From assembly GCA_051294375.1 (NCBI GenBank), contig CM119267.1, forward strand, positions 13,552,015 to 13,616,014: a stretch of 64,000 nucleotides of DNA, read 5' to 3'. Each line of letters begins with the position of its first letter. The first letter of the stretch is position 1. A model generated the notes under the pieces. The model worked only from the letters and a program-made list of their open reading frames with translations, made no database searches and was not told the DNA's origin. Source of the DNA: Paraspadella gotoi. Lineage: Eukaryota; Animalia; Chaetognatha. The position numbers and the translations under genes were made by a program. Positions 2,777-59,600 of the stretch are shown here, piece by piece.

Positions 2777-2835
2777 GAGGGAAGGGGCGTCTAACCCACT
2801 GGTAGTGACGGCCGAGAGTCCGATCCAAAGTTTAG
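2777..2835 (+). ncRNA. Degenerate twister motif
   Basis: GAGG-GA-AG-G-GGCGTC-TAA-CCC-AC...CCGA-TCCAAA-GT-TTAG; several broken pairs. Confidence 0.35.
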
Positions 2836-2909
2836 AACATTGAACGAAAAAAAAAAATTAATAACCAAACTAAACTAAAACTTTCAGGGTTAAACGTGTA
2901 CTTCAATTA

Positions 2910-5900
2910 TTACTGATCACTACCATATCCAGATAAGGAAGTTAATCTTCTTTTTCGTGTTCTTGTTGTTAGCATGGGATTAATAAATGGTTCAAGATCT
3001 TTGTTTCCTTTATGAGGTTCAATGCCATCTATTTTAGGCTTCAACTGAGGCTCTGTTAACTTGTTAAATTTTAAGGATAAATCTGATTTAGGCTTAATTT
3101 GAATGCAACCGTTATATTTTTTAAAATGTCCAGTATTTTTTTCAGGCTTTGTTTATAGTTTTAAAAAGTTTAATTACGTGTGACAGTATTTTTTATGCAA
3201 TGTATTTTTTTTTTTCAAATTAAAACCTTAAAAATTTCTTGAGAGGTATTGATGACTTAAAAAATACATTCAGATTCGTCAGTAAAAAATCATAAAAGCA
3301 TAATATGTTTTAAAATTGGTACAACCAATATAAACTTATCCATTCCAGAGGAGGATTTAGCCTGCCATCCAATTCTCCTCTTCCTCTTCTTTCCTCCTCC
3401 TCCTTCTGCCCCTCAGTATATTTTGTCTAGCGATACATTCTCTCGTTTCTACTCTTCGCGAAATATACCATTATTTTCCCTCTATTTCTTCACGCCTTCA
3501 ATACCCCTCAAGCATTCATTTAATAAATTAGTTATCTTTCCCCCGACTTGGGACAGGCTTTGGTGATTTAAGGCCTCCATCACACTTACAAGATAATGAA
3601 TTAGAAGGTCCAGAGTACCTGGCTTTCCTCTTAATGAAGTAGTATATTTTCAAGAATGTTTCAATTGTAAAAAGGACAACCTCCCACAATGCTCAGAGGC
3701 ACGGATCATCTCACTGGCTTTAAGCTAAGAGCTTAGACATACATATTTTATCAAATATAAATCTTAATTATCCTTCATTTAAACACGATTCATGTTGAAA
3801 TCTGTCTACATACGCAAATGATATGTATAAGCACTTATACATTTAAAAATTTGTACCGCCAATCAGTTTGACGCAAATACTACCACAGTAACAGAAAACT
3901 ATAATCAAAGCCAAAATTTTCAACCTGAGAGTTTTTTACAACACTTTCTAAACCTCCAATGGATTCTTGAAGATTTTTACTATTTGAAGGTTGGTAAAAG
4001 TTATCCTTTAAGTTGTTTTTAGCATCTTTCTGGAACTTTTCCAAAGATAATTCGGTTTCCCCTTCAATAGAGCAATACAAAGTTGCTTCAAAATCATACT
4101 TCTCTTTTCCTTCCGACAATGATTCTGATTTCTCCTCAGTAATATTTTGATCACTTACATCAAATTTTAAATTATTAACTTTTCGCAAACAGCTAACACA
4201 AGATTTTTCAGGCTCAGCTTTAGAAATGATAGATATCTCTGAAAAGTTTGTAATATCAGCTTGGGATAGAGCTTGCTTGACAACAACCGAATTTTCCAGC
4301 GAAGCAATATTATTATGGCTTTTCCTAACTTTGTCGTCTTCAGATTCATCAGAGCTAACGCAAATAATTTCAATCGAAAGATTAGGACCTTCTTTAACGT
4401 TACTTTTTTTTAAAGTACCAACTATCTTTGCTGGAGCAACTTTATCGAAAACAATCGTGGATTTAACATTTGGCTCGGGGTCTTCCTCCATAAAAGCTCC
4501 CGGAGAAGACATTACTTTATAAATTTTTCCCTCAAAAGACGGTGATTTTAATAATGTTGGAGACAGAGGATCTTCTAAACGAGGAAGGTTGATTAAATTA
4601 GTGAAAGAACTCGAGGGCAATTCTAAATTACGCGTGAGTGAAGAACAAGGCATGGGCAAACTTGATAATAATGACCGATTAGGTGAATTCGGCAAAGATC
4701 TAAACGATCTATCTTTACTATTATTGGTTATGCTGCTACTTATGGTAGTATCTGAAAACCAATTTGAAGGTAAATGGTCCGTCTCATTTTTTTCCTGTTT
4801 AGCGTGGCTATCCAATGGTGGAAATGCGTTTTTATTTACGTGGACTGGGTTAATCCAAGAATTCTCTATATTCCCATTTTGCCGAATAGTGCTTGGTTCA
4901 CGCGAAAACTCAGTACCAAGACTGACTGTTCCTGACAAAGATTTGCTCCGATTGCAGCAAATGTTTTCATCTGAAAGAAAAATAAGAAAATAGTTACTAG
5001 TTACAATGCATTGCTCAAAAATAATACTTAGTAGTTACCGTTTGTTTTATTCAGCCCTGGTTTCGTCAGACTGGTGCAAACTTGAGAAATATCTGGTCCG
5101 CGAACAGTATTATTAAAATCAACGGTTGTGGCTTTAGTAGAACCAGCAGCATATCCTTCCTATCAGTTGAAGATTATTTCAACAACTTTTTAAAAATGAA
5201 TCAGTTATACACCACATAAAAATGTTAAACTGATTCATTTTATTACATTCTTTTGATTACATGGTATGTATGTACATTGTATGTATATTGTATAATGTTC
5301 TAAGTACCTAAAAATAATGAAGTAAAATGACGATATTTAGAAAAACCACTTTAGTTTTTAGAATAGAAATATATCTTTTCAGCTCGGGATAATGTTCGCT
5401 TTAATTCTAATTAGGTACAAATTTTTATATATCTATTCACCAGTTTCTCTGTCGACTAATTTGTATTAAATTTTAACAGTGAAATTGTGGCGAATCCTAA
5501 ATTCGCCTCCTGTATAGCTTGGTGAAACTCAGCTCGTCCCATTGGCTTGGACAGCTAAGTACTCATTCACCAACCGTGAGTTCCGGGTTCAATCCCCTCA
5601 CCGTCACGCTGGTTAAAGTGTGATGGTGTCGGCATAAACACGCCAGTGACATGTGGTGGTCACTGCAGGTCCAAAGCCCTGGGCGCCAGCTGTCGGGAGA
5701 TGCATCACACCCTGGGCATCACAAATGTCCCCTCGATGGCATAAAATTCAGAAAAAAAAAAAGATTCAGAGCTTAAAGCATTGAGATTCTAACCCATATA
5801 AAGACCTTATTCTTAGTCATTTTAAAATAACATAAGAGTGATGGAGGCCTTAAACCACCAAAGCCTGTCCAAAGTCAGGGGCAAGATAGCTTATTTATTA

Positions 5901-6777
5901 AATGAATGGATAATTTTTATATTGGTTGTACCAATTTCATAAAAGGTATATATAATTATAAACCATTAAATTAAATGTGTTTTAGCTAAATGTTGTACAG
6001 TACAGTTTTAAAGTAAAAGCTTGAGAGAAACATTTTCTAATGGTGCAAGTTATGTTGAATATCAACCTGAGGGTTACTTGGAGCGTGTACGCCGGAATAT
6101 ACATTATCAAATCGATATGTTGAAAGGCGCGCCATGGAGTTCGATTCATTTCCCTCCATTAGACTGTTGTGTGGCGGTTTTTCCTCCAGCTTGATATCTT
6201 CCCGACGCTTGTGCGGCTGAAAAGAATGAATCCGTCGAACCCCACTTCCAAACGCCATTCGGGAATTTTGTGAAAACCCAGCTGCACTGAAATCGGATAA
6301 GCTCGTCACGCCCTTAACTGATCTTTTTTGCCGAGAATAAATCTTGGGACAGCGGGAAACAGAAAAGGCTCCAACATCTTGCAAGTAATCCCCAGCCAAG
6401 TAATCCCCAGCCAAAGACGACAGGGTCTTGTCGGACGCTTGATTGTAATATTTGTACGGCCTGCGGGAAAAGCGTGTACCTCCCATTCCGCCCGTAGGAG
6501 AAGGGGAACCAGAAGATGAATAAGGGGACGAAGAATGGAAAGAAGGATAACTTGAACAACCGCTTGCGAAAAGATCTGCATCACGTCTGAACGTTAAACG
6601 ATTGACGGAAGGGCGTGTCACGGGGACGACTTCGGGACCACAGCTGATGCGCTCATTCAAAGCTTGTGATAGACGGGTGCGCGATGACAGCGTCTGACAG
6701 ACGTAGGTTTCCTCTTCAGCGTCACTCGTCTCTGTCAGGTCAACAATTAACTCTCGGCCGGGTGGAGGCGTCGACAT
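2910..6777 (-). CDS. Spliced gene for a ~700-aa Ser-rich, probably disordered nuclear protein with SIM-like motifs; exons 6777-6067, 5159-5039, 4970-3925, and a tentative last exon ~3147-2910
   Basis: ATG at 6777 (MSTPPPGRELIVDLTETSDAEEE). GT-AG introns are phase-compatible: CAG|GTTGAT, TAG|GAAGGA, AACG|GTAACT, TTTCAG|ATGAAA. Exon 2 reads EGYAAGSTKATTVDFNN... and joins ORF 3880-4938 in frame. The last exon reads ...TTRTRKRRLTSLSGYGSDQ* (NLS-like). The last acceptor is uncertain. Confidence 0.7.
3542..3584 (-). ncRNA. Second copy of the compact twister motif
   Basis: Reverse complement reads TGT-GATGG-AGGCCT-TAA-ATC-AC-CAAAG-CCTG-TCCCAA-GT-CGGG; shares downstream AAGATA.CT.ATTTATTAAATGAATG with the 5837 copy. 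Confidence 0.55.
5488..5762 (+). mobile_element. tRNA-derived SINE family 1 with internal twister
   Basis: 5' hairpin GGCGAAT/ATTCGCC, B-box GGTTCAATCCC (5586), A-rich tail. Other copies at 44877-45850 (split by a MITE) and 38797-39720. Confidence 0.75.
5608..5690 (+). ncRNA. Type-P5 twister ribozyme, apparently intact; predicted cleavage 5635/5636
   Basis: P5 GCTGG/CCAGC; P2 GTGT/ACAC; GA-TG-G; P1 TG-TCGG-CA; T^AA; T2 GC/GC; P3 AGTGAC/GTCACT; P4 CAGG/CCTG; L4 TCCAAA with T1 CA/TG. Confidence 0.85.
5837..5879 (+). ncRNA. Compact type-P5 twister motif (short-repeat family)
   Basis: GT-GA-TG-G-AGGCCT-T^AA-ACC-AC-CAAAG-CCTG-TCCAAA-GT-CAGG; T2 AC/GT, T1 TG/CA, P4 CCTG/CAGG. Confidence 0.65.
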
Positions 6778-7083
6778 TTTCGACGGCTCATTCACTCATA
6801 ACTGTCACTTCAAGTTGATTTCGCTAAACAGGAAAGAACATTTGACATGACCAAATAAGTCAAAGAAAATAGAACTTAAACAAAAAACTATGAAATACCG
6901 TCAAAAGTTCAATTATAACATAATTGCTACCAGAACGTCTAACTAGATATGTATCCACGATTTAAATTTCAGACGTATCGTTACTATCAGGTCTTCAAAA
7001 TAATGAAAAGGGAAATAATTTAACAATAACTTGCCCCAGTAGACTAATAATGTAACAAACTGAGAAAAAGCTGTTCTCGACTC

Positions 7084-7260
7084 TCACTCGCGATAGTATC
7101 CACGACAGGGAATTAGCGGACGCATCGAAGGAGAGGAGTCGGGTGAGGTTCGACCAACGTTCAAGACCCGACGGTGGGATCCCCTGCCCAGCATCATGTA
7201 AGGATTTCTTTTTAACCACCGATCGAAGCATTCTTCAGATACGCAGGCTTCATCGTTCAT
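7084..7260 (-). CDS. Candidate 58-aa uORF or microprotein in a GC-rich upstream exon
   Basis: ATG at 7260, MNDEACVSEECFDRWLKRNPYMMLGRG...YYRE*. CpG-rich island with GTGAG donor-like site near its end. Cannot be joined in frame to the main ORF (in-frame stops after the acceptor at ~6824). Confidence 0.3.
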   Translation of the reverse strand: MNDEACVSEECFDRWLKRNPYMMLGRGSHRRVLNVGRTSPDSSPSMRPLIPCRGYYRE

Positions 7261-8127
7261 GCGACGATTCTCGTTCGGCTTAGACTGTTTCGTTTGAGGG
7301 ACGTCACACTCATAGTAAAGACAAGTCGACTGACGCTCATAGGGAGGAGAACGGTATTCTCTTGACAATTTAAGGAAATTGGAATGTCAAAATCAGAAGT
7401 TAATTTAATATAAATGAAAATATTTAAAAAGTTCAGTTCGCTTAATTTTAATTTCGTTGATTAGAATATTGGTACCTGAGTAAATCATGATATGATTGGT
7501 GATTTAGGAATTTTATCTTTTGTTTTATTTATTTTTAAGATTTTTTTTCGGGTAACTTTACCATTCAACGTCCGCAACCAACTTTAGCTACCACCGGTCG
7601 GTGCTTTGTTAATCCATTTAATTTTGTTTTCCCTATAATTTTATAATAAAAATAATTGTTTTAAATTTATTTTAATTGCTATTTTCATGTTTGAGTTAGA
7701 AAATGAATTGTTTGTTTACGTACGAGTTTTATTAACAAACAAATTTCAGCTTCAATATAAGCTTTAATCAGCGCAAAAACGAATTTATTTGTGAAACAAA
7801 TACTTTAACAGACTTTTTCTTTCTTCAAACTTCAAAGTCTGTGAAAATATTTCTTTCACAAATCAATTCGTTTTTGCGCTTATGAAAGTTTACATTTAAG
7901 CCGAAACATGTCCGATATTTATATTTTTTAATAAAACTCGTACATAAACAAACAAGGAAAGGAAAGAAAAAAAAAAAAATTTTATGTTATATTTTTTAAA
8001 CGGTTAGCTATTGGGTTATGGTCGGTTAGGGATTAGGGTTTGTTAGGGATTAGGGGTGGTTAGGGATTTGTAATAAAAAGTTTTTCTACCCTTACCAATG
8101 TCTTTTTTTATTTTTGAGTAGCGAGAT

Positions 8128-20198: not shown

Positions 20199-20538
20199 CG
20201 TATATAAATAAAATCAATGAAAATATTTTTCAAAACTTTTAATTTTTTTTTTAGCTTCCATCAAGAAAGAACAAAAACCAAGATAATGAAATTATCAATA
20301 AAGATATATAATTTAAAGAATTGCTGAGTCAATAAATTTTGAGCAGAAATGAAGGTGGGTGGGCTGGGGGCATAAAGAAAGCCATTTTGCTGGTGGGTCC
20401 GGAGAAGAGCGGGAGTTTAACCTGGAGGTCTCTCTATACAAGCTTTCTCAGTGGAGGCGATTGGTGGGTCCGGAGAAGAGCGGGAGTTTAACCGGGAGGT
20501 CTCTATACAAGCTTTCTCAGTGCGGGAGGGGGGGATGC

Positions 20539-20745
20539 ATGGTGGACTAAAATCCACCAACCGTTCAGCGCGCCATTGGTGCCAGAGGCAAGTCATTCGC
20601 CTCCCAACCCAAAGGTCCAGGGTTCTAGCTCGGTGGTCGCAGTTAAGGGGCGGGGCGCTTAACCCGCCTGTAACACGGTGTTACAGCCTAATCAAGCTCA
20701 GGGACTGATTATATTGAATGGTTCGGTCACTAACAATAATAATTA
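20539..20745 (+). mobile_element. SINE family 2 copy with degenerate twister (20640-20707)
   Basis: Colinear with 21361-21570; retains the TCAGG half of P4 and a CAGT/ACTG P5. Confidence 0.7.
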
Positions 20746-20758
20746 CTGTTCTCTGTAT

Positions 20759-20845
20759 TGGTGAGCCCTTCTCGTGAACACACAACCTTTTCATTCTCAA
20801 CACCCACGGTGCGCTGCCCTTCTACCGACCAAGCGCCACGAGCTT
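20759..20845 (-). pseudogene. tRNA(Trp)-like decayed sequence ending GGGCTCACCA
   Basis: Reverse complement AGCTCGTGGCGC...GGTAG...GGGCTCACCA; acceptor halves pair and CCA is encoded. Confidence 0.4.
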
Positions 20846-21017: not shown

Positions 21018-21265
21018 TGTGGCAGTATATTCACACTGCCTCATGTCCATTATCGTTCATCCAATCTCATTGGCTCAGAGGGGGAACACACCATCCCAGG
21101 CATTGTTCCATCCTCAGTCCTAACGACTTCCCTCTGCGTTGGCAAAGCGAAACCATCCTAGTGTAACCGCGCCAGTGACTGGAGGCGTCACTGAGGAAGC
21201 CCCCAAAGCCCACAGTGAGTTGCCCCATCCCATTGGGCATGACAGGCAACCCGGCTGTTGCCATA
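21018..21265 (+). mobile_element. Solo LTR of the same family, with a twister motif deleted in loop L4
   Basis: TGTGGCA...TGCCATA, high similarity to 58101-58358; flanks ATCC/ATAC (4-bp TSD with one mismatch) inside a HINE terminus. Confidence 0.75.
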
Positions 21266-21360
21266 ATACAACTAAAAACTTGCTTGGATCAGAATTTTTT
21301 GACTTCACTACAAGAAAGTAAAAATATTATATTTTTCATTTTTTGTGCTTTAAAAATGGT

Positions 21361-21570
21361 ATGGTGGACTAAAATCCACCGTTCATCAGCGGCCATTGGT
21401 GCCAGAGGCAAGTCATTCGCCTCCCAACCCAAAGGTCCGGGGCTCTAGCCCGGTGGTCGCCTAGCAGTTAAGAGGGACGGGGCGCTTAACCCGCCTGTAA
21501 CATGGTGTTACAGCCTGATCCGAAGCTCATATTGAACGGTTCAGTCACTAACACATAACAATAATTACTT
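21361..21570 (+). mobile_element. tRNA(Gly)-like SINE family 2 with internal twister motif (21473-21529)
   Basis: 5' hairpin GGTGGA/TCCACC, A-box-like TGGTGCCAGAGG, CGCCTCCCAA anticodon arm, B-box-like motif. Twister AGG-GA-CG-G-GGCGCT-T^AA-CCC-GC-C-TGTAACA/TGTTACA-G-CCTGA-TCCGAA-GC-TCA. Confidence 0.7.
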
Positions 21571-23208
21571 TCTCTTCAATGGGTTATTTCTACTTTTTTT
21601 TACGGGGTGTCTAGGGAACAGTGGGCAATAGCCTGAATAAATACATGAAAATTTTTTTTCATGCTCCTAAGATATTATACTAATTAACAAATATAAAAGA
21701 AATATTCCTCTCAAATTTTTACACAATGAGTTTCAACCCAGGTCAGAGAAAGTAAAATTATGCCTTTTTTATATATTATTTAACCACATTAGTTTCGACG
21801 ACCTTTTCATTTTCCAAAAACTGAACCAGGCATTTACAAAATTAATAAAGTTAGGGCTAAAAAAGGTAAGGAAGTTAAAAAATGAAAGTGGTTTAGAGGT
21901 TAAGCGTCAAGGATATAAATACTATATTATAAATAGGGTTAGGGGTAAGTGTAGTTAAAGATCAAGTTTTCAAGAGTAGGTGTGGTTATGGGTTAAAAAA
22001 GAGGCGGCTGAGCAGTAGGTGAAAATAAATGTTCAACCATTATTTTGTAAAACAAATCGGGCGGATAAGCGGAAGAACCAGAGTTAGATACATGGGAGGA
22101 GAGAGAGAAGATACGGAAAAAAAGAAGGAAACAAGGTAATCGGAGAAAGTGAAGGGAATAATAGAGATTTAAAAACGAAAAGATTTTTAGGAATTTCTTT
22201 TCTTTGAGCTGAGATTCAATCATATTTAAATAAATAATAATAAATATAAAACAGTAAAAGAACTTATTTTCGAGTTTAATTTTTAGCAAGTGCAAAGTCT
22301 GGAGAGACATTATTGAAGGTACTTTTGTTTTACTTTTAGCCCGCATAAGCGAGCAGTTTGATCGAATGCGACCTCTCTAAACACTGTCAACATTCCCAGA
22401 CAAAAGACAAAGTGAAACTTGAATCAGACTGACAAAGTGAGGTAAAGACTAAAGTGAAGTAAAATGAAGTCAAGTAAAATAAAATAATAAAGTAAATATA
22501 TATTAAAAAAAAATTATTCTGATTGATATATTTAGAAAAAAAAATCCAAGAAAATCTCGGATGGCGATAATAAAAGTTTTTAGAGGGAAAAAAATAATCA
22601 GAGAGAGAGAGAGAGAGAGAGAGAAAGAAGCAAAATCGTTTTCAGCAGCAGAAGCACCCAGAAAAAAAGAAAGAAATCAAAAGTCAGCAGCAGCAGAAGA
22701 AGAAAAGAGAGAAAAAGAATACGCCCATTCAGAGCCAGCTGCAGAGAAAGAAATCAAAAGGCAGCAGCAGAAGCAGCAGGAGAAAAAAGAGAAAAAGAAT
22801 AAGCCCCTGCAGAGCCAGCTGCAGACTCGTTTTTTTCCCTTTCTGTATAATTTATACTATAAATCAGTGACTAGGGAAAAGAGAGAGGGAGAGAGAAAAG
22901 TAATTAAAAGAGAAAAGAGAGAGAGAAAGAAATAGAAAAATAAAAGAGAAAATTGGTTTGTTTTGATAAAACGTAAACAAAACATTTAATAACTGTCCAG
23001 ACTCAATTTTAAACACATCGATGATAAGAAGCTGTATATAAATTTTCAGCTTCATACACCCAAATTTAATCATAAAAAGGCGATCTATAATTTGGAACGC
23101 CGACAACGACGACGACTACGCCACTTATGCGCAAAAGTGTTACAATATCGTCGCAAACGCAAAGCGATTGCGACGATAAAAAAATGTTTTTTAAAATTGC
23201 AATATAAC

Positions 23209-35200: not shown

Positions 35201-37987
35201 TCACTTTAAATAACAAAATGTTATCAATCTATCTAAAGTTGTTTCATTACTTTCAGCCAATGCGAGAATTTAACATGTGTATATCTTAATCAACAAATTC
35301 CTCTTTTTCTCATTCTCATTTTTATTTCTCTCCTTCCAAAAACAGTTAAATTTTAGCTGGCTTGGTTGATTATGGCCTCCACTCAAATTTACAAAGAAAT
35401 AATGACATAGAAATGACATCGTAGCTCTCAATCACAACTTAAGCGATCACTTTAAACCAGAAACCTAAGCTTTTGTTTTCAAATGGTTTAACCACGTTCA
35501 TCCAGAGGACTCTCTCGATTGAAATCTTTTAAACTGTTTTTTTCCTGTTTGACTCNNNNNNNNNNNNNNNNNNNNNNNNNTTTAAAATTGTTTTTCTCTG
35601 TTTACTTTAATGATTGTTAAACTGAATGATTTTCAGTCTTGATTTGTCCTATATGTGAAATTAAATATTCTTATTCACTTTTACTACAGAAACGTTTTTA
35701 TTTCTTTATCCTCAATGTATGAGTTACATTATAAGAAGATGAAACAAAATAAGTGAATCGGATCAAGTATTGTTCTACATCAAAAATGTAAACAAATAAA
35801 CTATCAATTCTCTATCGATTCAAACTCAATCATTACAAATCAATGTAAATAAACTGAATCAAAACAATTCGATATTTAACGCCAAAGATTTTCCTGCAAC
35901 GTCGCCATGAAAGATACTTCAATATTTGCCAACGTCTTAGAACTCTAACGTTACAGTTTGCCACGGTACTTCGTCACGCTGTTGCTGGCCTCAGTCACCA
36001 GGCCACAAATCTAAATAACAATATGACAAATTCATTTTTATTTTTTTTATGAATGGGAAGTTTTCTCTGGCTTACTCCCTTGTGTCATAATTATTTAATA
36101 TTTTAGAGGTATTTCAAAACCTTATATAATTACTATATTTTACTTTTTTCAAATTCTTTCAAACAAAAATATCATAAAAACATTTTATAATAAAAAAATA
36201 AATTGATCGAATGATTTTGAAAAATATTGAAAACTTAAGAAATAATGGATTTCGAGTTAGGAAAAAAATTTTGCAATTTCTAAAAAAATCAGCCTCTAGC
36301 CTTTCGGATTTTTTAGAGGCTGATTTTTAAATTTTTTTGAATATTTTGATTTTCTATGCAAAACATTATTCTCAATGAGCATAGGTCGACGAACTTTTTT
36401 TTCAATAATTTGAAAAAATTTCAAACTTTTCTAATTAGGCTTTTTTGGGGAAATAAATAAATAAATTGTATAACAATGGGTACATCTAAAAGTGATATGT
36501 CTCTAAATGATAACAACATTTTCTTCAAGTTTTATTTTTTGAAATTCAAGTATTGTACCATAGAAAATATGTGAGATACACTTGCTTTGCCGAAATTTTT
36601 AGTTAAAGATTGTACTGCGTAGTTTTTACTTCCTATGATATCACACTTTTTTAAGAATCAATCGTAATTCGTAGTAGTTTTTATATAAAAAAGTGTTATA
36701 AATAAAATGAACAAATCCGAGTAATTGATATAAAACTTGTCAATTTATAAAGATTTGATGATGAGAACCAAATTTAATTTTTTAACTTCCTATATTTCTA
36801 ATTGTAGAAAAAACGACGACTACACAAAGAAGCCATTCTAAACAATAATCACGCCAAGATATTGTTATCCGCTTAAGCCCGTCTGGCGAGATAAAAAAAC
36901 ATGAACTCTTAGCATTAGGTTATATGGCCCCTTACAGAAAAAATCAAGGCCCTCTTAGAACCTGAATCGATTTTCAAATAGAAGAATGAATGATTATATG
37001 ATTAAAAATTCATTGCGTTTATTCTCTCTTTTCTTTGTTTGGTAATTAGACGAGAAAAATAGAATTCATAAAGCTGACAACATGTATAATAGGGTGGACT
37101 GATGAAAGATTGAGTGATTGAACCATTATTTTTTTGCTGCCTTTGGACATTGTAATTAAGAAATTTTAAATTCTTTTAAAATTTTGTTAGTAAACAGTAT
37201 AGTAAATTTCAGTTATTTATGTAATTAATATCCTTATTAACAATCGTTAATTCAAAAATATTTTATTTTATTTTTAAAAACAGATTTGGATTCGCCGTAA
37301 AAAAACTAAGAAACTTTTATAAAATATGTTATACGTGATATTCTAATGGTTTAGATTCAAAAAAAGATAAATACGTTTTTACATATATAAGTTTCTACTA
37401 CAAAGAATAAAAAAGCTTGAATTTTTACCTTTTTTCAAGTTTCAAACGCTGAAGATGACAGAATTTTTGATAACATGTTTTATATTATTTTGATTCAACT
37501 TTTTACGGAAGAATCTGAATCTTATTAAAAGTTAAAAAAAATTATTTTTAAAATTTACTTATTTTATAAGGATATTACTACGAAATAATTATATTTTACT
37601 ATTTCTGTTTCCCGAGACAATATGAACAAAATATTTTTTTGTACTACTTATATCATTCAAATATTTTTTTGTTCTTGAGTGCTCTTTAAAATAAATCGTT
37701 GTTGAATTGAAATATTTTTCTCGTCTGATTAAAAATTTCGCGACCACCCTTTTGGCGGTCTCGCTTTCATAATATCAATAGTACTTTACAATACAGTGCT
37801 ACAATATAATACATAAAATAATACAGGTCAAGATAGCTTATTGAATAAGATGATAATCTTTATACAACTATTGGTTTACCGCCAATTTATAGAAAGGCGT
37901 AATAGAAAAGCAAAGTTAGATAACATAATCGCACAAGGTTGTCTCAATAAAAAAAAACAAATTGACTGAATAGTGAATAGAATGTTA

Positions 37988-38241: not shown

Positions 38242-41200
38242 GGTTAATACTTTTTTTCCTCACCGATCCCTTTAAACGTTGTAAAGATAAAAAGTTCCAA
38301 CAACAGAAGTCAGTTATGTAAAACTGGACCTGTAGAATATAAAAAAAGTTGCACATGACTTTTTTTGATAAATAAATACTAAACAGACCAATTATATATC
38401 ACTAATCACAGTTCACAATATGGCAAAAAGATTCGTGTTGGCACGTATGACTTGAGTTAATCTCTAAGGTTTTGAATAAATAAATAATAAGTGAATGAGA
38501 CTTAAATTATGGCAATCGAGTAACGAGGAGTTCAACAATATCTTTTTATAGAACTAATTTTATAAATAAGGAGGTATAGATAAGTTAAAATCTGTAGTTA
38601 TCAAAAACCCTATATTGTAAAGAAACTATTCACGACAGTTAACATTACAATAATTCACAAGATAATAAATTTTTATTAATATTCATATTGAAGATCAGAA
38701 TAGCTTTTCAACTATTCACCAGAAGATCAATTATTTATTACAAAAGAAACATCGCTTTTCAGTCATAGAAAAGTAAAGCACATTTTAATGGTATTGTCGG
38801 GCAATCCTAAATTCCGCCTCCGTGTAAAGCTTGTGAAACCAGCTCCATGGCTTGACAGTAATAGCAGGTCATTTCGAGTACCTTTGTGATGAACACGGGC
38901 TAGGAAGAATAGAATTGTGGTGTCCATATATCAAATGGCTATGAGGATTTATCCACCTAAGGCGATAGATAGGCTGTGGCAAAAAATGGTAAAATATTAT
39001 ATTTAATAATTTTTGTTTGAAGTTGCACAGACGTTATCTTTCCACAAAAAACATTTATTACCTCAAAATTATATCATTTATTCATAATTATTGAGCTTCA
39101 TGAACACAGCAGTTAATAGTCAATTTGAAAAATTTTAAAATATAGAAGTAACGATAAAACCATCATCTCATTCTTCAACCATGCTTAATTATTGCAATTT
39201 GATCAATTTTATGTTCTAAAATGTAGTTTTTTTCTTATGTTTAAAACTGTCAATGACTACTAAAAAAATTTTTGAAAAATAAAAAAAAAATTTAAGCATT
39301 TTTTGACCCCCCAGGGGTCCACCCCCAGGGGCCCGTTTCTCTTTGTCAGGGGTTGAATATCAAAATTCGCCTCGATTAGTTCCATTTAGTTATGTCATTA
39401 GCACTCTAATGTAAAATTGTATTAAAATTCCATTGGCGTAGTTTGGTGCGGGAACAGTTTTTGGTCAGCATAAAAAGGCGGTACCAAACATTTTATAATA
39501 TGAAGCCTCTGTACTCGGTTTAAAACAACCGCGAGTTCCGGGTTCAATCCCCTTACTGGTCACGTTTGGTTAAAGTGTGGATTGGTCTGTCCGGGCATAA
39601 AACAGTCCAGTGAATGGGCCAGTGGTACACTTGCAGGTCCCAAGGCCATGAGGCCCCCAACCTGTCGGGAGATGCCTCCACACCCGGGACATCACACATG
39701 TCCCCGTGCCAAGTGTTAATTTTCACAGATCTTAGTTATGTTAACTTTTTTGCACTATTTAACGTTTAGAGGGACTGTATGATAATTTGATACAATGCGG
39801 CATTACAATTTTTAAATTTTATTATTTTACTTTTTGACCAAATATTATCAAAAATTTAAAAATAAATTAAATACTTTGTAGTGAACATTTACATTTTGCA
39901 TTTGCCTAAAAATCAATTATTTATAATATTTTTTTCGAATTCAAAGTTGTACCCCGGTTGAGCAAATCAGTGACACAAATAAGAAATTATTGCCAGTTTA
40001 CTGCATTGAAAATAAACGTAAACTTTTTTTTTTATTAGATAGAGAATGCTGAGACGTTTGTTCTGTTAAAATTTTAATTTAAATTGATATTTTTTAACAA
40101 CTAGAAATTATTAATTTTTTTGCAAGATGTCAAAGCTCGTCAAATATTGATGGCTCATCGCATTCTTTAATAATCAAACACAATGAATAACTTTTATTCA
40201 TATCAAGATCACAGTTAAATACTTTTCAGCCTTATTGACCTCTACAGAGGTCCGGAAGCAGTTCTGGTTGTATACGAAGATTCATTCTCATGCCTTGTGG
40301 CAAGCAATTTTAAGCAGCTTGGGACTGAACAACATTTAAAGCATCAAAATTGGGCTAAACATGATTGTTGATGATGCAGATATTGTTGCGCACTGAGCAT
40401 AATTGCCAAAAGTTTAAACAACATGGGAATTAGGACACATGAAAAAGGCGTAAACGTTACTGTTCCGTGCATAAAAAAAATTCACCTGTTACAATATTAT
40501 TATATTTCTTTTTATTTTTTTTAAACGTTATGTTTCATATTTTGCATATCCAAATATCAATGCAAAATTCTTTTTTTGTTTTTAGATATTGTGACTGATT
40601 ATAGGGTGAAAGATGATAATTTTTTTTTTAAAAAGTTACTTTATTCATATTTATTCATAGAATTGTTAATAGAAAAAAAAATAAAAAAAATAATAGCTTA
40701 CCAATATTAGTGGTTATGTCTCAAATAGAGAACGAAAAAAAACCTCATTTAAAAAATTCGATCGGGAATGGGCGTAACTAAGGCTTACCAATGGCATTCC
40801 TCACGCCGATTGTTCTCTCAAATAATTTTTTTATTAATACATTTGAAAGGGAAAAAAAGAAAATTTTGGGAATGCAGGGTTGCAGAAAAGGGTACAGATA
40901 ATTTGGACCTTATTGACCTGATAACCATGACCTTTTATATCTTGGAAATGGGGCAGTAATGAAATCTAAAAAATTTCATCATTTAAGTCAGGTCAATATT
41001 GAAACCCTTTCCAATGGGCTATTACGAGAAATATTTTTTCTTATTTAAAATGGATAGATAAATAATAGAATTAAATTCCTTGATGCTATATTTAAAAAAA
41101 AATTATCAATACAATTTTAACTCAATAATGTTTTTGCTTTGCTCACATATTGTTACCTGCTATATAATTTTTACAACTTTATTATTGATAAAACAAAGCA

Positions 41201-44338: not shown

Positions 44339-44950
44339 GGTTAACTTTTTTCCTCACCGATCCCTTTAAACGGTTGTAAGATAAAAAGTCCAACAAAGAA
44401 TCAGTTATGTAAAACTGGACCTGTAGAATATAAAAGAAAGTTGCACATACTTTTTTGATAAAATAAATACTAAACAGCAACAATACTTCTAATACACTAC
44501 TTCACAGTTCACAATTGGCAAAAAGATTCGTGTTGGCACGTGACTTGAGTCTAATCTCTAAGGTTTGAATAAATAAATAAATAAGTGAATGAGACTAAAT
44601 TATGGCAATCGAGTAACGAGGAGTTCAACAAATCTTTTTTAGAACAATTCATAAATAAGGAGGTATAAAGTTAAAATCTGTAGTTACAAAAAACCTATAT
44701 TGTAAAGAAACTCTTTCACAACAGTTAACATTACAATAATTCACAAGATAATAAATTTTTATTAATATTATATTGAAGCTCAGAATAGCTTTTAACTATT
44801 CACAGAAATCTATTATTTTTACAAAATAAACATCGCTTTCATCATAGAAAAGATAAAGCACCATTTTAAGGTATTGCGGCGAATCCTAAATTCGCCTCCC
44901 GTAAAGCTTGGTGAAACTCAGCTCATCCCATTGGCTTGGACAGCTAAATA

Positions 44951-45658
44951 GCGAAGGTTTCATATTATAAAATGTGGTACCCCTTTTTTGTGACCAGAAC
45001 ACGTTCCGAGAAAACTAAGGAATAGAATTTAATGAAATTTTGCATGCGGAGTACCAGTAGTGATACAAATGGAACTATCGAGGCGAATTTTTACATTCCA
45101 CCTCCAAGGCTGAGATAAGGGGCCCTGTGGGCAAAAAATGGTCAAAATATTTATAAATTTTTTTAATAATTTTTGTTTTGAACAGTTGCACAGACGTTTA
45201 CTCTTCCACAAAAACATTTATTACCTCAAAAATATTCATTTATCATAATTATTAGCTTCATGAACATCAGCAGTTAAAGTCAGATTTGAAATAATTTGGA
45301 AAAATTGGAAGTAAAACGATAAACCATGCATCTTCATTCTTCAACCATGCTTAATTATTGCAAATTTATCAATTTTAGTTCTAAAATGTTTTTTTCTTAT
45401 GTTTAAAACGTCAATGCTACTAAAAAAATTTGAAAAATAAAAAAAAATTGAAGCATTTTTTGACCCCCCAGGGGTCCACCCCCAGGGCCCTGTATCTCTT
45501 GTCAGGGGTTGAATATCAAAATTCGCCTCGATAGTTCCATTTATATAGTCATTAGCACTCTAAATGTAAAATTTCATTAAATTCGATTGGGTAGTTTGGT
45601 GGGAACAGATTTTGGTCACAAAAAAGGGGTACCACATTTTATAATATGAAGCCTTCTG
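44951..45658. mobile_element. Tc1/mariner-type MITE inserted at a TA inside SINE family 1
   Basis: ~45-bp TIR (CA)GAAGGCTTCATATTATAAAATGTGGTACCCC; the empty site AAGTACTC is seen at 5558. Confidence 0.8.
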
Positions 45659-45705
45659 TACTCGTTTAACAACCGCGAGTTCCGGGTTCAATCCCCTTAC
45701 GGTCA

Positions 45706-45792
45706 CGTTGGTTAAAGTGTGATGGTGTCGGCATAAACAGTCCAGTGATATGGGGTGGTCACTGCAGGTCCAAGGCCATGAGGCCCCCAACT
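45706..45792 (+). ncRNA. Degenerate twister in a SINE family 1 copy
   Basis: Same layout; P5 covaries to GTTGG/CCAAC; substitutions in P2/T2 and P4. Confidence 0.6.
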
Positions 45793-47050
45793 GTCGGGAG
45801 ATGCCTCACACCCAGGACATCACACATGTCCCCCGTTGCCATAGTTTAATCTTTTCAAGATCTTAGTTATGATTAACTTTTTTGCACAAATTTTAACGTT
45901 TAGAGGGACTGCTATGATAATTTGATAATGGATTACAATTTTTAAATTTTATTATTTTATTTTTGACCAAATATTATCAAAAATTTAAAAATAAATTAAT
46001 ACTTTGTATGAACATTTACATTTTTATCATTGCTAAAAATCAATTATTTATAAATATTTTTTTCGAATTCAAAGTTGTACCCCATGAGCCAAATCCAGTG
46101 ACACAAAAGAAATTATTGCCAGTTTACTGCATTGAAATAAACGTAAACTTTTTTTTATTAGATAGAGAATGCTTGACGTTTTTTCTGTTAAAATTTTATT
46201 TAAATTGATATTTTTTAACAACTAGAAATTATTAATTTTTTTTGCAAAGATGTCAAAGCCGTCAAATTGATGGCTCATCGCATCTTTTAATAATCAAACA
46301 CAATGAATAACTTTTAATTCAATATCCAAGATTACAGTATAAATATTTTCAGCCTTATTGACCTCTACAAGGTCCAGAAGGGCAGTTGGTTTATACGAGA
46401 TTCATTCTCAGGCCTTTGGGCAAGCAATTTAAGCAGCTTGACTGAACAACATTAAAGCATCAAAATTGGGCTAAAATGATTGTTGAGATGCAGATATGTG
46501 CGCACTGAGCATAATTGCAAAGTTAAACATGGGAATATATGAAAAGCAGCTGTGGCTAACAGTATGATTTGTTTTCTTTTTAAAACATGGGTAGTTTCAA
46601 AAAAAATATAGTAACCAATACAATACACCAACTGTATCAATTTTTTTTAACAAAAGAACTCTCTCTCCCTCTCACACATTTCTTGTAAAGTGAAAATTGC
46701 TTATTTTTCACAAGTGATGAAGTCTTGAAACAAGTCGAAACACTGTTTTTCTAAAAATAAAATCGTTGTTTGTTCAAACTAAAACTTTTTCGAACAAAAG
46801 AACTAAAGTAAATCAGAGGGGAGTAATGCAGTTGTTCTGAAGTTCCAACTTATCACATATCATTTTTTTTTTAAAGTAATTTGTCACTAAAGAAGTCTTG
46901 CAAAAAGACTGACTGTGTAAGAAACCGATGAAAAGATGAAAAGATTGTTCCACACAAGTTCGGGAGGCATTTTAAGCATTTTTATACCCATTTTAATAAA
47001 TATTTTGGTCATTTCAAAAACGTCAATAATTTTTCTATCAAATGGTATAA

Positions 47051-53600: not shown

Positions 53601-56600
53601 TGCGATTTTTCATGTTAAGGACAACTTTTAAGGATCAAATTGCTCGTAGGAATTTACGCGTCAATCAGATTCACAGAACTCTTCAGAATAAAGATGACAC
53701 TTAAAAATTTTCTTTTTTCCCCTCCATTTTACTTTTTCCTTCTCTTTCTCCCTCTCTGTCACTCTTTCTTTCCCTCCTTTAATACTTCTCTCATCCCTTT
53801 CCTCTCTTTTGCCTTTTTTCCCCTTCTTATTTCTTTCTTCCTTTTTATTTCTGCTTTTCTTTTTCTATCATCGATTCTCTCTCTCCTTTTTTGTCTTTTC
53901 TTTTCTTTCCTTCTCTCTTGTTCTCAACCTCCTCTTAATCTTTTTTCTACTTTCTACTTTCTACTCTCCCTCTACTTTATTTTCACACACTCATTCTCCC
54001 TCCACTTCTCTTTGTTTCCCTCTACAATTTTTTTTTATTATATTTTTAAAAATAAACAGAGTTATTATATATTCTCTCTCTCTGATATTTTTTTCTGAAA
54101 TGTTGATTATCAGGGCTAAAATCTATTATGTTTGCAGAAAATATATGTTATATTCTATGCCTCAAGGTGTTGCGCGTTCTATACGTCGCCCGTTTAAAGA
54201 ATTCGACGAGAGTCTTTGGATAATTATTGTTTTATTAGTATCAATAATGTCAAAAACCCTCGTCGTACTCTTTAAACGGGCGACGTCTTGAACGCGCGAC
54301 ACCTTGAGGCACAGAAAATAACATTTATTTTTTGCAGTAGAAACTTTAATTAACGGGCAGACGCTAACTTGCTTCGATCATAATCGTTTCACAGAAAAAG
54401 ATCGGCCGTCGGATGAATAGGCTTTATCATGGAAAAAAAGAATTTTCGTAACGAATTTATTGTACGACACATATTTTGCCATTGGTTTACTTATACAAGA
54501 ATAAACCTATTCACGATTTATTCGACATTTATATATCTTTGAGATTTTGAAAACCTTGCTCCATATTAAAGCCAGTGCATCCGACCGCCGACACCTTGAA
54601 CGCGCCGCATCGAAAATAATAAATATTTTCTACAATGTTCTTTTATTTTATAATCTCTCCAAATTATTTTTTTTATTTCGAGCCGAAAAGTTTTATTTTA
54701 CGTTGAGATTTCTTCGGTGCAGCCGCCTATTGATTTTATTTCAATTTTAGTCGCCTAGCAAATTTAGTAAATCGACAGATTTTGCGGAAAATATTTTCCG
54801 CAAAATCTGTCGATTCTCAGAAAAAAGTCCTGACTTTTTCCATTGGATTAAAAGGATGCGGTTTATGTTTATTAATCAACGTCAGTATGTATATCATCTT
54901 TTTAAAACTAATAAATGAGTTGAAAATATTCTCAAAAAGTCACAAATAAATAGACGTCTTTAAAAATTATTTGTGGCTAAACGAAACAGGTTTTTTGATA
55001 ATTTTGTAGGTATTAAAAGCTTATAGGCTATATTTTCTGTTAATTTAAACTAATTTGAACAATTTTCGTTTAACAAATTATAATAAAAAACTAGAAATGA
55101 AACTTTTTGACTTTGTCAACTTTAAAATTAATTCATAGGCAAACTATAAATGATTTAAGAAATAAAATTACCCAGAGGCGAAGAAGATAAGGAAGAACGG
55201 ATTTCCCAATTAAAAAATTTATATATAATTTGAAAAAACAAAAGAAAGGCAAAAAAATGTTACAATTAAAATCATAGCTTGTAAAAGTTTTTTTTTATTT
55301 GTATTAAAATTAATATATAGCTTCTCATTAAAAAGGTCTTTTGATTTCACATGTTTTTTTATTGATTCAAAGATTTGTTTATGAATTTCATCTTCAACAT
55401 TATTTACTGCAATATGTAAATTATTATTAAAGCATTTCTATATTATAATGAGTATTATAATCTCATCTCCATATTGCAGTAAATCATAATGAAGTGGAAA
55501 TTCAAAGAAAAAAATACTTGAATCCAAATGTAATATAAAAAATTCAAAGCTATTTCAAAATGAGAAGCCATATTTAATTTTTTAACTTATTATGATTGCA
55601 CACTTTTATAAAACTTCATCGTAATTCATAATAATTTTTATTTAAAATAAAACGGTAAGTCCCAGCCAAAACTATAAAAGCGTAGTGTTTTTATATAAAC
55701 AAGTTTGAGCAAACAATGTCGGATCTGCTTACGATAAGTGGTAATAAGCTAACTTGGTCAACTTGTACTCATAATTTGGTCAACTGACATAATTGTTATT
55801 TTCAACTGACATAATTATAATACGATCAACTGACATAATTGTATCAACTGACATAATTTATCAACTGACATAATTTGATCAACTGACATAATTTTGGATC
55901 AACTGACATAATTTGATCAACTGACATAATTTGATCAACTTGCAGAATTTTGTCAACTGGCATATTTTGTCAATTGGCATAATTTGGTCAACTGGCATAA
56001 TTTGGTCAACTGGCATAATTTGGTCAACTTGCAGAACTTGATCAACTTGCAGAATTTGGTCAACTGGTATTTTTGTCAATTGGCATTATTGGTCAATCAA
56101 TCAATCAGAAAAAAATTCAAATAAATATGTCTTTTGGTTTTCTAATTTTAACTCTTTTCCACTCCTACGATTCCATCAAAAAATTTATATCCAGCTTTAT
56201 CACATTACTTTCCTACCCACACAAAAAAATTCAATTTCGATTTATCTATCCAATTTTTAATAAACATAATAATTATGAGTAAATTTAAGTAAAAATACTT
56301 CAAGTAAATATGACTTTTGTTTTTTCCATTTTAACTCATTTCCACTCGCACGATTCCATCGAAACTTTATATCCAGCTCAATCTCACACTTCCCTACCAT
56401 CATACAAAATTTCAAGTCAATTGCCCTATCCACTCATGAGCAATTGGCGTTCAAATAGTGAAATTTTTTTTTTTCCCCATTAAACCAATTTCCACTCGCA
56501 CGATTCCCTCAAACTTCATATCCATCTCAATCACACAGTTTCCTACCCCACACACAAAATTTCATACCAATCCATCCATCCAATCACGAGTAATTGGAGT

Positions 56601-59600
56601 TTTTTGCTAAGGTGGGACGGACGGGGTACGGACGGACATTTTTTTGCATAATTTATCATAATTCGATGTTCTGACATGATATAAGTGTGTGCCCGACAAT
56701 ATTGAGGGGGCGGACCGACGGACCGACAAAGTGAATTATAGAGTCGGGATCTGCTGATAAGCAGATCGACTAAAAAGCGTGAAGCCGACGCACTGTCACG
56801 AAGCTCACCCGAAACAATATCGAGCCTGGACCGGCTTCGCCGGCAGTCTTGATAAAAATTGTTTTGTAAATGAAACAAACAAATGAGTGTAGGAATATGA
56901 AACATAATTTAAATGTTAAAACATTGTGACGACGACAACGGTCAAAAGAAGCAGAAACGAATTAACATCTCGCCCAAGTCGGACATTCGCCCGTCTGGAG
57001 AGATATTAACGAAAAGTAACTCGCGGCGAACTAAGTTTCAAACAAGAAAATACCCGTGGTGCACTTCGTGAGTGGCGTTGGGCGTAAGTCCCGCCAAGCG
57101 TTGGGCTATATCGAAACCGAGAAGATCCGCGGGTGGGGCCGTTTTAGGTGCGCCCTCTTTCGGCTGTTCGTACCCCACAACAGGAGACATGGGCGGCGAT
57201 ATTAAAAACTGCTTCTCTAAGGGAGGAGGTTTCAGAAACTGTTCCGCCTTTTCGCTCAGTTTCTATAAGCAAAAACAGTAAGTTAAAACTGCTTAATTTA
57301 CAACTTCCCATTGCTGTATAATTATAATTTATTAATATTGCGATATTGAAGTGACCGACAGGACAGGGGGTTCTCCGTGTCCCTCTGACGGATAGCCTCA
57401 GATTTTCCCGTCAATTGCCTTGGTTTCCGGAACTTCGGATTTGGCTTGCTACCGTGGGTTAAACCGGCCCGTCACTTTTGCAAGGACAAAGGGCTAGAAC
57501 CGTGAATCAAGGAGTTCGGTTTGGAACAGTCTCATCAAACGAAGTAGTAGTGACTCACTACAATATACAGAAGGCTTCATATTATAAAATGTGTGTAACA
57601 TTGGTTCGGTATTATTTCCACCGCCGCTCAGTCTGTCCATCCATTTTTTTCCGTTCGCGCCAAATCAATTGGCTCAGAGGGGGAAAACACCATCCCAGGC
57701 GTAGTGTTATATCCACAGTTCTAACGACTTCCCTCTGCGTTGGCAAAGCGAGACCTTCCTAGGGTAACCGCGCCAGTGACTGGAGGCGTCACTGAGGGTC
57801 GGAAGCCCCCAAAGCAACAGTGAGATGCCCCATCCCAATGGGCACACAGAGCAACCCGGCTGTTGCCATAAGTGGTGAGCCCTACTATCGAACATGCACC
57901 TTATCAGGGTACGCTACGACAAACGCCTATGCCCTGCCAACTTCGGGTATGCTACGACAAACGCCTATGCCCCTGGGGTACGCTACGACAAACGCCTATG
58001 CCCCACAACTCGCTCTCTCTCTCCTCTCCCACTATGGTAGCAGTCTTGTCAGACACCTTTCAGGCTTGAGGAACCCGAGTGAGGTCTTGCCCGGAGATCC
58101 TGTGGCGGTATATTCCCACCCCTCCTCACGCCACCATCCGTCAGCCAAATCAATTGGCTCAGAGGGGGAACACACCATCCCAGGCGTAGTGTTCCATCCA
58201 CAGTCCTAACGACTTCCCTCTGCAGTTGGCAAAGCGAGGCCGTCCTAGGGTAACGCGCGCCAGTGACTGGAGGCGTCACTGAGGGTCGGAAGCCCCCAAA
58301 GCCAACAGTGAGATGCCCCATCTCAATGGGCATCACAGGCAACCCGGCTGTTGCCATAGTACCCCTTTTTTGTGACCAGAACACGTTCCGAGAAAACTTC
58401 TGGACCAAATTATTGAAATTTGGAAAATGAACGACCCCTATGTGAATACAAATAGAAATATCAAGGCGAAGTTCAATAATTGACCACTGAGCCGAGATAT
58501 GGGCCCTCTGGGGGGTCACCCATTGGGGCAAAAAATGGTCAAAGATTTTTTACAAATTTTTCAAATATTTTTTTCTTGAACAGTTGCACAGACGTTTACT
58601 CTTCCACAAAAACCTATTTATTACCTCAAAAATGTTAATTTACCTTAATTTTTAGCTTCATGAACATCAGCTGTTCAAGTCAGATTTGGAATAATTTTAG
58701 AAAATTGGAAGTAAAACGATGAACCATGCATCTTCTAACAATGCTTAATTATTGAAAATTTGTCAATTTTAGTTCTAAAATGTTTTTTTTATATGTTTAA
58801 GACGTCAATGCACCTGATGCTACTAAAAAATATTAAAATAAAAAAATAAAAATTTTTAGCCTTTTTTGGCCCCCCAGGGGTCTAGCCCCAGGACCCTGTA
58901 TCTCTTGTCAGGGGTTGAATATCAAAATTCGCCTCGATAGTTCCATTTATATTGTCATTAGGACTGTATATGTAAAATTTCATAAAATTCGATCGAGTAC
59001 TTAGGTTCTGGTCACAAAAAAGGGGTACCACATTTTATAATATGAAGCCTTCTGTACTTATTTTGTATGTTAAAAAATATTAAAAAACATTACCGCATTT
59101 TCAAACTGTTTGAATGTTCACTGTTGTTCAGATAGTACCTGAGCGAAGTAGCATCTTAGCTTTTCGCCCTCGAGCTCCAGGCCGTCGAACTTGTCTCTAG
59201 CGGTGGAGGCTTTCCCACGGGAGCTAAAATCTACGCGGGCACGCCGGAACGACTTGAGATATATAAAGTGAGCATCGCCGTCCAGTTCGAGAAACATGGA
59301 TTCCAGTTGGCGTTTTTTTTCTATGTCCCTGAATGTACATGGTATATTTGAAACCCGCCGCTAGAAAAAATTCACCAAACGAAAACGTGAAAAAGATTAA
59401 CATTTTGAAAATAAATACACAAGATATACTCATTTTTTAGGTATAGATATCAGTTCTTTCGGTTTACTTCTACTTTAACAGGAAGAGGTATAAGAAAGCT
59501 TAGAAAATGATCTCGCTGCTCTATAGACTAATATTTTTTAATAAAAAAAATTTGTTTTACTTTCTGGACGATTTATAAAAAAATCTTTCAAAAAATAACA

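Follow-up and report, generated by a model that had tools for sequence, protein, structure and literature searches.

The window analysed here is a 64,000-nt stretch of the genome of the chaetognath Paraspadella gotoi (assembly GCA_051294375.1, contig CM119267.1, positions 13,552,015 to 13,616,014) and holds copies of six families (A to F) of a twister-like motif. Families A, C, D and E sit in LTRs of 216-258 nt. Family A is found in a 258-nt solo LTR (5486..5743, + strand) with TG...TA ends, a 4-bp duplication (AAAT) and loose contig ends at 5486; its twister (5618-5681, +) has the P1 segment TGTCGGCA at 5627-5634 and a predicted cut after U5635. A second A LTR (44873..45843, +) is split by another repeat into parts 44873-44950 and 45658-45843, with P1 TGTCGGCA at 45726-45733, and an A LTR part with many indels (39526..39705, +) carries a damaged twister. 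The 219-nt solo LTR of family D (21360..21578, +; duplication ATGG) has a tRNA-like head and a twister (+) with P1 GGCGCT at 21481-21486 and a predicted cut after U21487. Another D LTR, at 20536-20757 within the span 20524..20768 (+), is directly preceded by a purine tract, is followed by the PBS-like motif TGGTGAGCCC at 20759, and is the middle LTR of what is either an array or a broken element; the core of its twister (+) is damaged and the P1 GGCGCT (20654-20659) is intact. Family E is a 216-nt solo LTR on the minus strand (57347..57562; TG...CA ends, duplication ATAT) whose decayed twister has P1 GCCGGT at 57463-57468. Family C forms a two-LTR element (57594..58358, +) made of LTR1 (about 57600-57870, with a noisy 5′ end), an internal part (57871-58100) with a PBS-like motif at 57873 (+), and LTR2 (58101-58358). 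The P1 segments of its twisters (+), TCCTAGGG, lie at 57757-57764 and 58243-58250, with predicted cuts after U57765 and U58251 that would delimit a unit of 486 nt. In a decayed C LTR (21018..21265, +) the palindrome and L4 are damaged. Family B is non-LTR-like: a fragment at 5833..5935 (+), with the A-rich 3′ end common to B copies and the variable 5′ ends of the family, includes a minimal twister (5837-5879, +; P1 AGGCCT at 5845-5850, predicted cut after U5851). A second B twister lies at 3513..3590 (minus; P1 AGGCCT at 3571-3576, predicted cut after U3570), and a heavily decayed copy with a broken palindrome at 35340..35410 (minus, approximate ends). Family F is a single decayed motif (2778..2835, +) with P1 GGCGTC at 2786-2791 and a predicted cut after U2792. 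Summed contig depth, which is not copy number, indicates high repetition of families A, B and C.

Only family C shows two LTRs flanking a short non-coding part, A, D and E being found as solo or single LTRs. The two-LTR context invoked by the first-pass annotation is real for this family. Its element is the only one of its kind in the window and its copies are damaged or contain assembly errors. It is confirmed in contigs, where joints with TG..TA ends skip 765-768 nt and loose ends are found at 58358. Each of its LTRs carries a predicted twister, as judged from the fold only, and a 166-aa frame overlapping the element had no Pfam match. The window has TGGTGAGCCC at two places, 2-3 nt past an LTR end in both cases; a purine tract is clear for D and not for C. 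Matching 4-bp target duplications are present at the three solo LTRs (A, D, E), and no clean match was found for the two-LTR C element or the C copy at 21018. The sequence GGTTC at 5586 (A), 57501 (E) and 20621 (D) we take to be box-B-like, and degenerate matches in C and D to be box-A-like, by comparison with consensus motifs; ARAGORN found no tRNA. The absence of a T4 terminator from the LTR was dropped as evidence, such a terminator being missing from 141 of 462 comparable stretches as well. The sequence anatomy makes it likely that the hosts are non-coding LTR elements resembling Helenus, which would amount to LTR retrozymes of an animal that use a twister. They would work like retrozymes, but are not classed among the LTR retrozymes, the motif being a twister and not a type-III hammerhead. 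As for family B, of which the window has fragments only, a look for the linked RT and GIY-YIG gene expected of a Penelope-like pseudo-LTR gave no Pfam match in seven long frames, one of them upstream of the copy at 3581.

Judged from their sequences, the motifs qualify as genuine twister folds of type P5. P2, P4 and the pseudoknots T1 and T2 occur in P5 order in families A-D and are partly damaged in E and F, and the type-P5 features checked (the conserved L1 G-A, the U-A-A cut site and the L4 pattern) are all present. Both pseudoknots covary among families (TG/CA, CC/GG and CG/CG in T1; GC/GC and AC/GT in T2), and these variants recur in metagenomic P5 twisters. A strict descriptor used first returned 24 rows, two true loci and the remainder chance, and a scored scan in which P1 was left unscored was used instead. 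The palindrome loci took ranks 1-9 among its 16 matches at a score of at least 20, and no motif with a non-palindromic P1 scored above them in the window. The best match was family A (5618-5681; 47.1), D (21360-21578) reached 40.9, and E (29.5) and F (28.2), both weak, decayed single copies, fall inside the range of best scores from 12 shuffles (maxima 22.2-35.4). The scan picked a shifted register in four decayed copies, namely 58238, 3581, E and F; one extra T makes the register of the E twister ambiguous. A MAFFT alignment of all 12 motifs placed family B wrongly and was left out. An Rfam search gave no match in the window at the gathering score, the best being to Twister-P5 (RF02684) with 25.8 bits at 5837-5879 (family B; gathering 37.6 bits). 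These unmet thresholds, the damage seen in most window copies and the A-C mismatch at one end of P2 in families B and C would be explained if the folds were structural relics in LTRs that have lost cleavage. We consider this very improbable, because the catalytic G, UAA and both pseudoknots are retained across diverged families and most contigs carry the twister pattern at positions where the window copies deviate.

In all six families the segment between GA-N-N-G and TAA is a P1 of 6-8 nt that is paired to its centre. The first-pass annotation had assigned a palindromic segment to every twister, which holds at the places given above for each family and fails for individual copies, three decayed ones (near 21155, 35384 on the minus strand, and 39575) having lost it. 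P1 hairpins are present in every P5 twister, a self-complementary P1 being built into the P5 permutation. The outer pairs are thereby forced and only the central 4 nt are informative. The five departures from a perfect palindrome are all G-U when read on the twister strand. Among the variants listed for contigs from two DNA runs, no common one falls in the family C P1, and P3 loop variants of this family exceed 20% of summed depth in run X1. The palindrome ACATGT ascribed earlier to the hammerheads of the window was also recovered, in seven of nine hammerhead-like cores drawn from 13 pattern matches.

The controls were 57 microbial and phage P5 twisters with near-canonical P4, found with search patterns that admitted P1 from 2 nt upward; given this composition, the contrast does not amount to an animal-wide bias. 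Their P1 is a stable hairpin of 14-30 nt in 57/57 cases, against 6-8 nt in 6/6 families here. The centre is self-complementary in all six families and in 5/44 even-length controls (one-sided Fisher p 2.9e-5). The families are not independent, given the homology of A with C (z 9.8) and a weak relationship among D, E and F (z about 3); the p value is 6.5e-4 with four families and about 0.003, calculated by hand, with three lineages. Thirteen control candidates had been removed for a P2 under 3 bp or the lack of T2, and the three shortest of these (7, 12 and 12 nt), one of them a misparsed type-P1 twister, are not centre-paired. In viral contigs a relaxed short-P1 pattern found six loci, none a short-P1 P5 twister, and these six were excluded from the control count; none of the 27 loci of a metagenome scan has the animal-type short P1. 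A stable P1 hairpin belongs to type P5 and is lacking here (the forced hairpin has a predicted energy of +2.7 to +6.0 kcal/mol), so the motifs are a variant of that type.

The short P1 could be a shrunken monomer hairpin of 1-2 bp with a tetraloop, or with a 2-nt loop, whose centre was left behind when one or a few ancestors lost the loop, and which plays no role between copies. The forced outer pairing, the reduction of related families to about three independent cases and the paired centre of five controls are compatible with this origin. It is nevertheless unlikely: the families have no stable tetraloop consensus in common, and their centres differ (CG, GC, TA) yet remain complementary. Between the homologous families A and C, P1 differs at 6/8 positions with all four pairs kept, and its innermost pair, impossible in a hairpin, changes on both sides from C-G to U-A. 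A structure test of A against C (four rows, two families, with the structure derived from the same sequences) found 94.3% of 88 cells paired, compared with 32-48% in slid controls, and a two-sided change in 6/22 pairs. In the predicted fold of element C the probability of the own hairpin is at most 0.001, a further point against a shrunken hairpin.

A duplex of P1 from two copies has a predicted energy of -6.3 to -11.0 kcal/mol (-4.6 for the hammerhead palindrome). When constrained, the swapped fold of element C lies 6.5 kcal/mol below the local fold, a gain that is partly built in; in the unconstrained fold, computed without pseudoknots on a noisy copy, the cross-LTR P1 pair probability is only 0.01-0.15. 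The first-pass annotation had proposed that P1 forms between two copies, and the contrast with the 57 controls, the energies and the innermost-pair change between A and C bear out the pairing itself, which we regard as fairly well supported by sequence comparison and modelling. The same covariation and energies are also accounted for if each twister cuts well as a monomer and the palindromes pair for another purpose, either RNA dimerisation and packaging into a helper's particle, or end joining. Retroviral and Ty RNAs have palindromic dimer-initiation signals, and after the predicted cut the palindrome would lie at the unit RNA's free 3′ end. A dispensable P1 also fits this alternative, which we rate as unlikely: the palindrome replaces P1 exactly, even in the non-LTR-like family B, where a signal for an LTR particle should be unneeded, and the gating palindrome of dimeric hammerheads occupies the same site beside the cut.

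On the reading that we prefer, the palindromic P1 probably finds its partner in the P1 of another copy and does not pair with itself, and sequence and modelling leave about an even chance that, in consequence, two-LTR transcripts cut better than single copies. RNA polymerase III would start at the tRNA-like boxes in LTR1 and transcribe on through LTR2, and the two palindromes would form one helix of 6-8 bp in which halves are swapped between twisters. An ordinary active site of type P1 would be built from the 3′ half of the first twister and the 5′ half of the second, and another from the two halves on the outside, in a fully nested arrangement. Cuts at both U^A sites would release a unit RNA (486 nt in family C) with 5′-OH and cyclic-phosphate ends, which would be circularised. 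A helper LTR retrotransposon would then copy it into DNA starting at the PBS, both steps following the proposal made for plant retrozymes. With a single palindrome, neither the circle nor a solo-LTR transcript would have a stable P1, and both would be cut more slowly. Against this scheme, the monomer might be closed by an unpaired linker of 6-8 nt. Among about 1,950 type-P1 twisters, imperfections in P1 did not reduce the fraction cleaved and P1 was termed dispensable, according to the available part of PMC11662667, and Schistosoma twister variants with a disturbed P1 cleave, some at the speed of standard twisters and some more slowly (PMC8501958, in part). That P1 gates cleavage is a proposal, P1 being dispensable in those other twisters. 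We advance only tentatively, as rather less likely than not, a wider scheme in which twisters arrived by convergence at the two-copy switch seen in minimal hammerheads and cut only as domain-swapped dimers. An undescribed group of animal LTR retrozymes transcribed by pol III would thereby count LTRs, two-LTR transcripts yielding the circularising unit and circle or solo-LTR transcripts being spared, and the design, with the same P1 in family B, would also have been adopted by a non-LTR-like element of this genome.

To our knowledge, two-copy control is so far known only from hammerhead ribozymes. We found no published description of this palindromic-P1 arrangement, and supplements of twister surveys might list eukaryotic or animal P5 relatives. 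If correct, this would be the first natural dimer-dependent twister; retroelements would have reached the same control, cutting only with two terminal repeats per RNA, via unrelated ribozymes, and LTR retrozymes, described from plants with hammerheads, would extend to animals. The role of the twister P1, widely held to be dispensable, becomes directly testable with RNAs of 60-90 nt. As the motifs score below Rfam thresholds, standard scans may overlook a large class of twisters in genomes.

Compared with type-P5 twisters (RF02684), the part order, GA-T1, UAA, P2, T2 and P4/L4 are alike, but P1 has 6-8 nt and no loop here, the Rfam model having 14 extra positions, and the host is an animal retroelement. 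Penelope-like-element hammerheads with a palindromic stem III cleave as dimers (PMC6765202, as far as its available text goes). These minimal type-I hammerheads, present also in amphibian retrozymes (PMC6765202, PMC7761336, both in part), share the palindromic, very short helix immediately 5′ to the cut and host elements that put two copies in one transcript; they differ in belonging to an unrelated ribozyme class, in that dimer cleavage is reported for them and only predicted here, and in that the hosts of A, C, D and E are true LTR elements. The Helenus TRIMs and TRIMp3, as described in the accessible part of PMC10886601, are likewise short non-coding LTR elements with solo LTRs, 4-bp duplications in animals and a length range (311-1263 bp) that includes ours, and their tRNA-like LTR boxes and PBS have putative counterparts here. 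That part does not mention a twister, and none was seen by eye in its animal LTR sequences; unlike those elements, LTRs A and C have TA as their last two letters and no purine tract is clear in C, and the likeness is one of anatomy. The Schistosoma Perere-3 T-variants (PMC8501958, in part) also combine a twister of unusual P1 with an animal retroelement, but are of type P1, lie at the 5′ end of a non-LTR element, take the P1 5′ strand from the target site and have no palindrome. Plant LTR retrozymes undergo cleavage in each of their LTRs and give rise to circles (PMC4918200, available portion). They resemble the present elements (PMC4918200, PMC7761336, both in part) in having one ribozyme per LTR, a PBS (a PBS-like motif here), a 4-bp duplication, no coding capacity and a unit RNA between the cuts, predicted in our case, and differ in their type-III hammerhead and plant host, against a twister, a putative tRNA-like promoter and an animal host here, and in their circles, known there and predicted here.

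The window is AT-rich DNA of animal type (GC content per 2 kb of 25–43%), rich in repeats, many copies of which carry indels. No Rfam family matched anywhere in it at the gathering threshold; below that threshold Twister-P5 was found at 5837–5879 (25.8 bits, E 0.32) and twister-P1 at 5632–5703 (22.1 bits). The six P1 segments singled out by the first-pass annotation are all present, each within a twister motif of P5 order: 2786–2791 (family F), 5845–5850 and 3571–3576 (−) (B), 5627–5634 and 45726–45733 (A), 20654–20659 and 21481–21486 (D), 57463–57468 (−) (E), and 57757–57764 and 58243–58250 (C). The parts of every motif follow the type-P5 permutation (P2'-GA-T1'-N-[P1]-UAA-P2-T2-P3-P4-L4-P4') and the pseudoknots covary across families, with T1 pairs TG/CA in A and B, CC/GG in C and CG/CG in D and E, and T2 pairs GC/GC in A, C and D and AC/GT in B, E and F. 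In a scored scan that gave P1 zero weight and allowed 0–30 nt there, the family loci took ranks 1–9 among 16 matches scoring at least 20, a shifted register being picked in four damaged copies. Six window matches reached at least 33, versus one in 12 block shuffles. Families E (29.5) and F (28.2) score within the range of the shuffles and are treated as probable, decayed twister copies. That every twister motif has a palindromic P1, as first proposed, holds by family (6/6) and not by copy, since the palindrome is no longer intact in three other decayed copies.

The twisters of families A, C, D and E sit inside LTR units of 216–258 nt, whose first two bases are TG, or TA in one D copy, and whose last two are CA or TA. 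Single units with a 4-bp duplication lie at 5486–5743 (A), 21360–21578 (D) and 57347–57562 (E). In each unit the stretch upstream of the twister has degenerate motifs of tRNA-like type, box A, box B or both, and two places in the window, both 2–3 nt past an LTR end, hold the PBS-like sequence TGGTGAGCCC. For family C there is a two-LTR element, about 765 nt long with TG..TA ends (57594–58358 (+)), that contigs of sequencing runs X1, X5 and X9 skip as a block; loose contig ends accumulate at 58358. A high-copy repeat with inverted ends (44951–45657; around 57566–58420) hosts this insertion and also interrupts an LTR of family A. Of the family A copies, those at 39575 and 45721 are not independent insertions because both lie inside one tandem segmental duplication (36500–39800 and 42600–45930, about 6.1 kb spacing). 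Families A, B and C recur very often (two alignments contained 7,942 and 13,757 contigs of run X1), most of all family B (5833–5935), whose depth climbs toward the shared 3' end. The B copies share one A-rich 3' end, near 5930, and vary in their 5' ends, which suggests a non-LTR or Penelope-like tail, possibly a Penelope-like one with a twister replacing the hammerhead. No Pfam match was found in seven tested long frames of the window; the serine-rich open frame at 3880–5034 (−), of 384 codons and with no Pfam match, is probably a host gene exon. A large inverted duplication (about 5900–7900 and 10770–12824; several arms 98–100% complementary) may be genuine, or a fold-back created in assembly.

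P1 of a P5 twister is a hairpin, so the ends of the segment are necessarily self-complementary and its informative part is the centre. Control P5 twisters were gathered, by patterns with P1 free from 2 nt upward, from 33 viral, 12 prokaryote and 27 metagenome loci, the last with a T1 variant identical to that of families A and B; 13 candidates were removed because their P2 was weak or T2 was missing, which left 57 distinct P1 segments. All 57 are 14–30 nt long and fold into hairpins at −7.9 to −24.1 kcal/mol; of the 44 with an even length, 5 have a self-complementary central tetranucleotide. P1 in the window is 6–8 nt long with a paired centre in all six families; its predicted energy is +2.7 to +6.0 kcal/mol as a forced hairpin and −6.3 to −11.0 kcal/mol as a two-copy duplex. 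The one-sided Fisher p for the difference in paired centres is 2.9e-5 when six families are counted and 6.5e-4 when four are. Homology between families A and C (z 9.8; z 4.1 outside the twister, on the 3' side) and a weak relationship among D, E and F make three lineages the careful number to use, for which p, calculated by hand, is about 0.003. Judged against these controls, all microbial and with a near-canonical P4, the short palindromic P1 departs from the usual P5 form; the comparison bears on that form and not on animals in general. In phage contigs L021–L024, L015 and L025, several P5 twisters follow one another at distances of a few hundred bases, their long P1 hairpins all different.

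The most direct sign of P1 pairing, at the level of sequence, is one comparison between two families, A and C, from which the structure itself was drawn: their P1 segments align without gaps and differ at six of eight positions with all four pairs kept, the second and the innermost pair by two-sided change, and the innermost pair is not formable in any hairpin. The palindromes are imperfect at five places, always by G-U on the twister strand, an indication of pairing as RNA and not of a palindrome in DNA; three of the five lie at the outer pair, where G-U is frequent in controls too. Among the 40 best-supported entries of each contig variant table there is no common P1 variant in A, B or C, whereas in run X1 variants above 20% of the summed depth are present in the P3 loop of C. 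A contig of run X10 over 57681–57954 has nine listed substitutions, none in P1, and a second matches 5833–5880 exactly; this run is labelled as another organism and may be mixed or mislabelled.

In a two-LTR RNA the palindromes of both copies would pair with each other, nesting the 3' half of the first twister with the 5' half of the second. The inner core would have the usual type-P1 order, its P5 carrying a long insert, and be enclosed by a second core formed by the outer halves. In a pseudoknot-free model this swapped fold is 6.5 kcal/mol lower than the local one for the family C element as sequenced (−221.2 versus −214.7); unconstrained folding gives mini-hairpin probabilities of at most 0.001 and cross-LTR pairs of 0.01–0.15. 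Cuts at both predicted sites would free a 486-nt RNA with ends suited to circularisation, a reaction shown for plant retrozymes, and a circle or solo-LTR transcript would hold a single palindrome, without a stable P1. We infer transcription, cutting, gating and circles for these elements; pairing of P1 between copies is probable, and the chances of a real gating effect are about even. It is quite possible that a monomer cuts well without a second copy: in the accessible text of PMC11662667, P1 is termed dispensable, and its imperfections, length and stability show no relation to the proportion cleaved by 3 h in 1,948 scored type-P1 twisters, while that of PMC8501958 describes Schistosoma variants with disturbed P1 that cleave, two at control speed and three less well. 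Both studies, as far as their accessible text goes, concern twisters other than P5 with a 6–8-nt P1 tether, however, and an end-point assay would overlook rate differences.

The literature searched, which excludes subscription papers such as the one that first described twister, along with its supplement, yielded no description of dimeric or palindromic-P1 twisters or of twisters in LTRs; no new twister forms are reported in the available part of the ribozyme permutation paper PMC10085705. The anatomy of the LTR elements fits Helenus-type TRIMs as described in the available sections of PMC10886601, which do not mention twister; none was found by eye in the animal LTR sequences of that paper. 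In its Data S1, the wasp sequences Helenus-2_SyJa-LTR and Helenus-2_SyUm-LTR both have, downstream of their tRNA-like portion, the core of a hammerhead, likewise without mention in those sections. Ribozyme-bearing Helenus LTRs may recur with another ribozyme class. Plant LTR retrozymes, from the available parts of PMC4918200 and PMC7761336, also fit except for the ribozyme class; a 2026 preprint (10.64898/2026.07.22.740005) presents LTR retrozymes, in the portion available, as elements chiefly of plants that carry type-III hammerheads, and the word 'twister' is absent there. Nine minimal type-I hammerhead-like cores in Penelope-like fragments were seen at 1238 (−), 1938, 13721 (−), 20161, 24808, 25921, 27617 (−), 49003 and 62253, and the ACATGT attributed to them by the first-pass annotation is borne out in seven. 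The proposed twister layout, a palindrome adjoining the cut site, is the same as in the minimal hammerheads of Penelope-like elements, where a palindromic stem III lies beside the cut site and dimers are reported to be needed (PMC6765202, accessible text), the dimeric cleavage that the first-pass annotation had cited for them. The short palindromic-P1 P5 twister in LTR elements is a variation on known kinds: twister, LTR retrozyme and Helenus-type TRIM.
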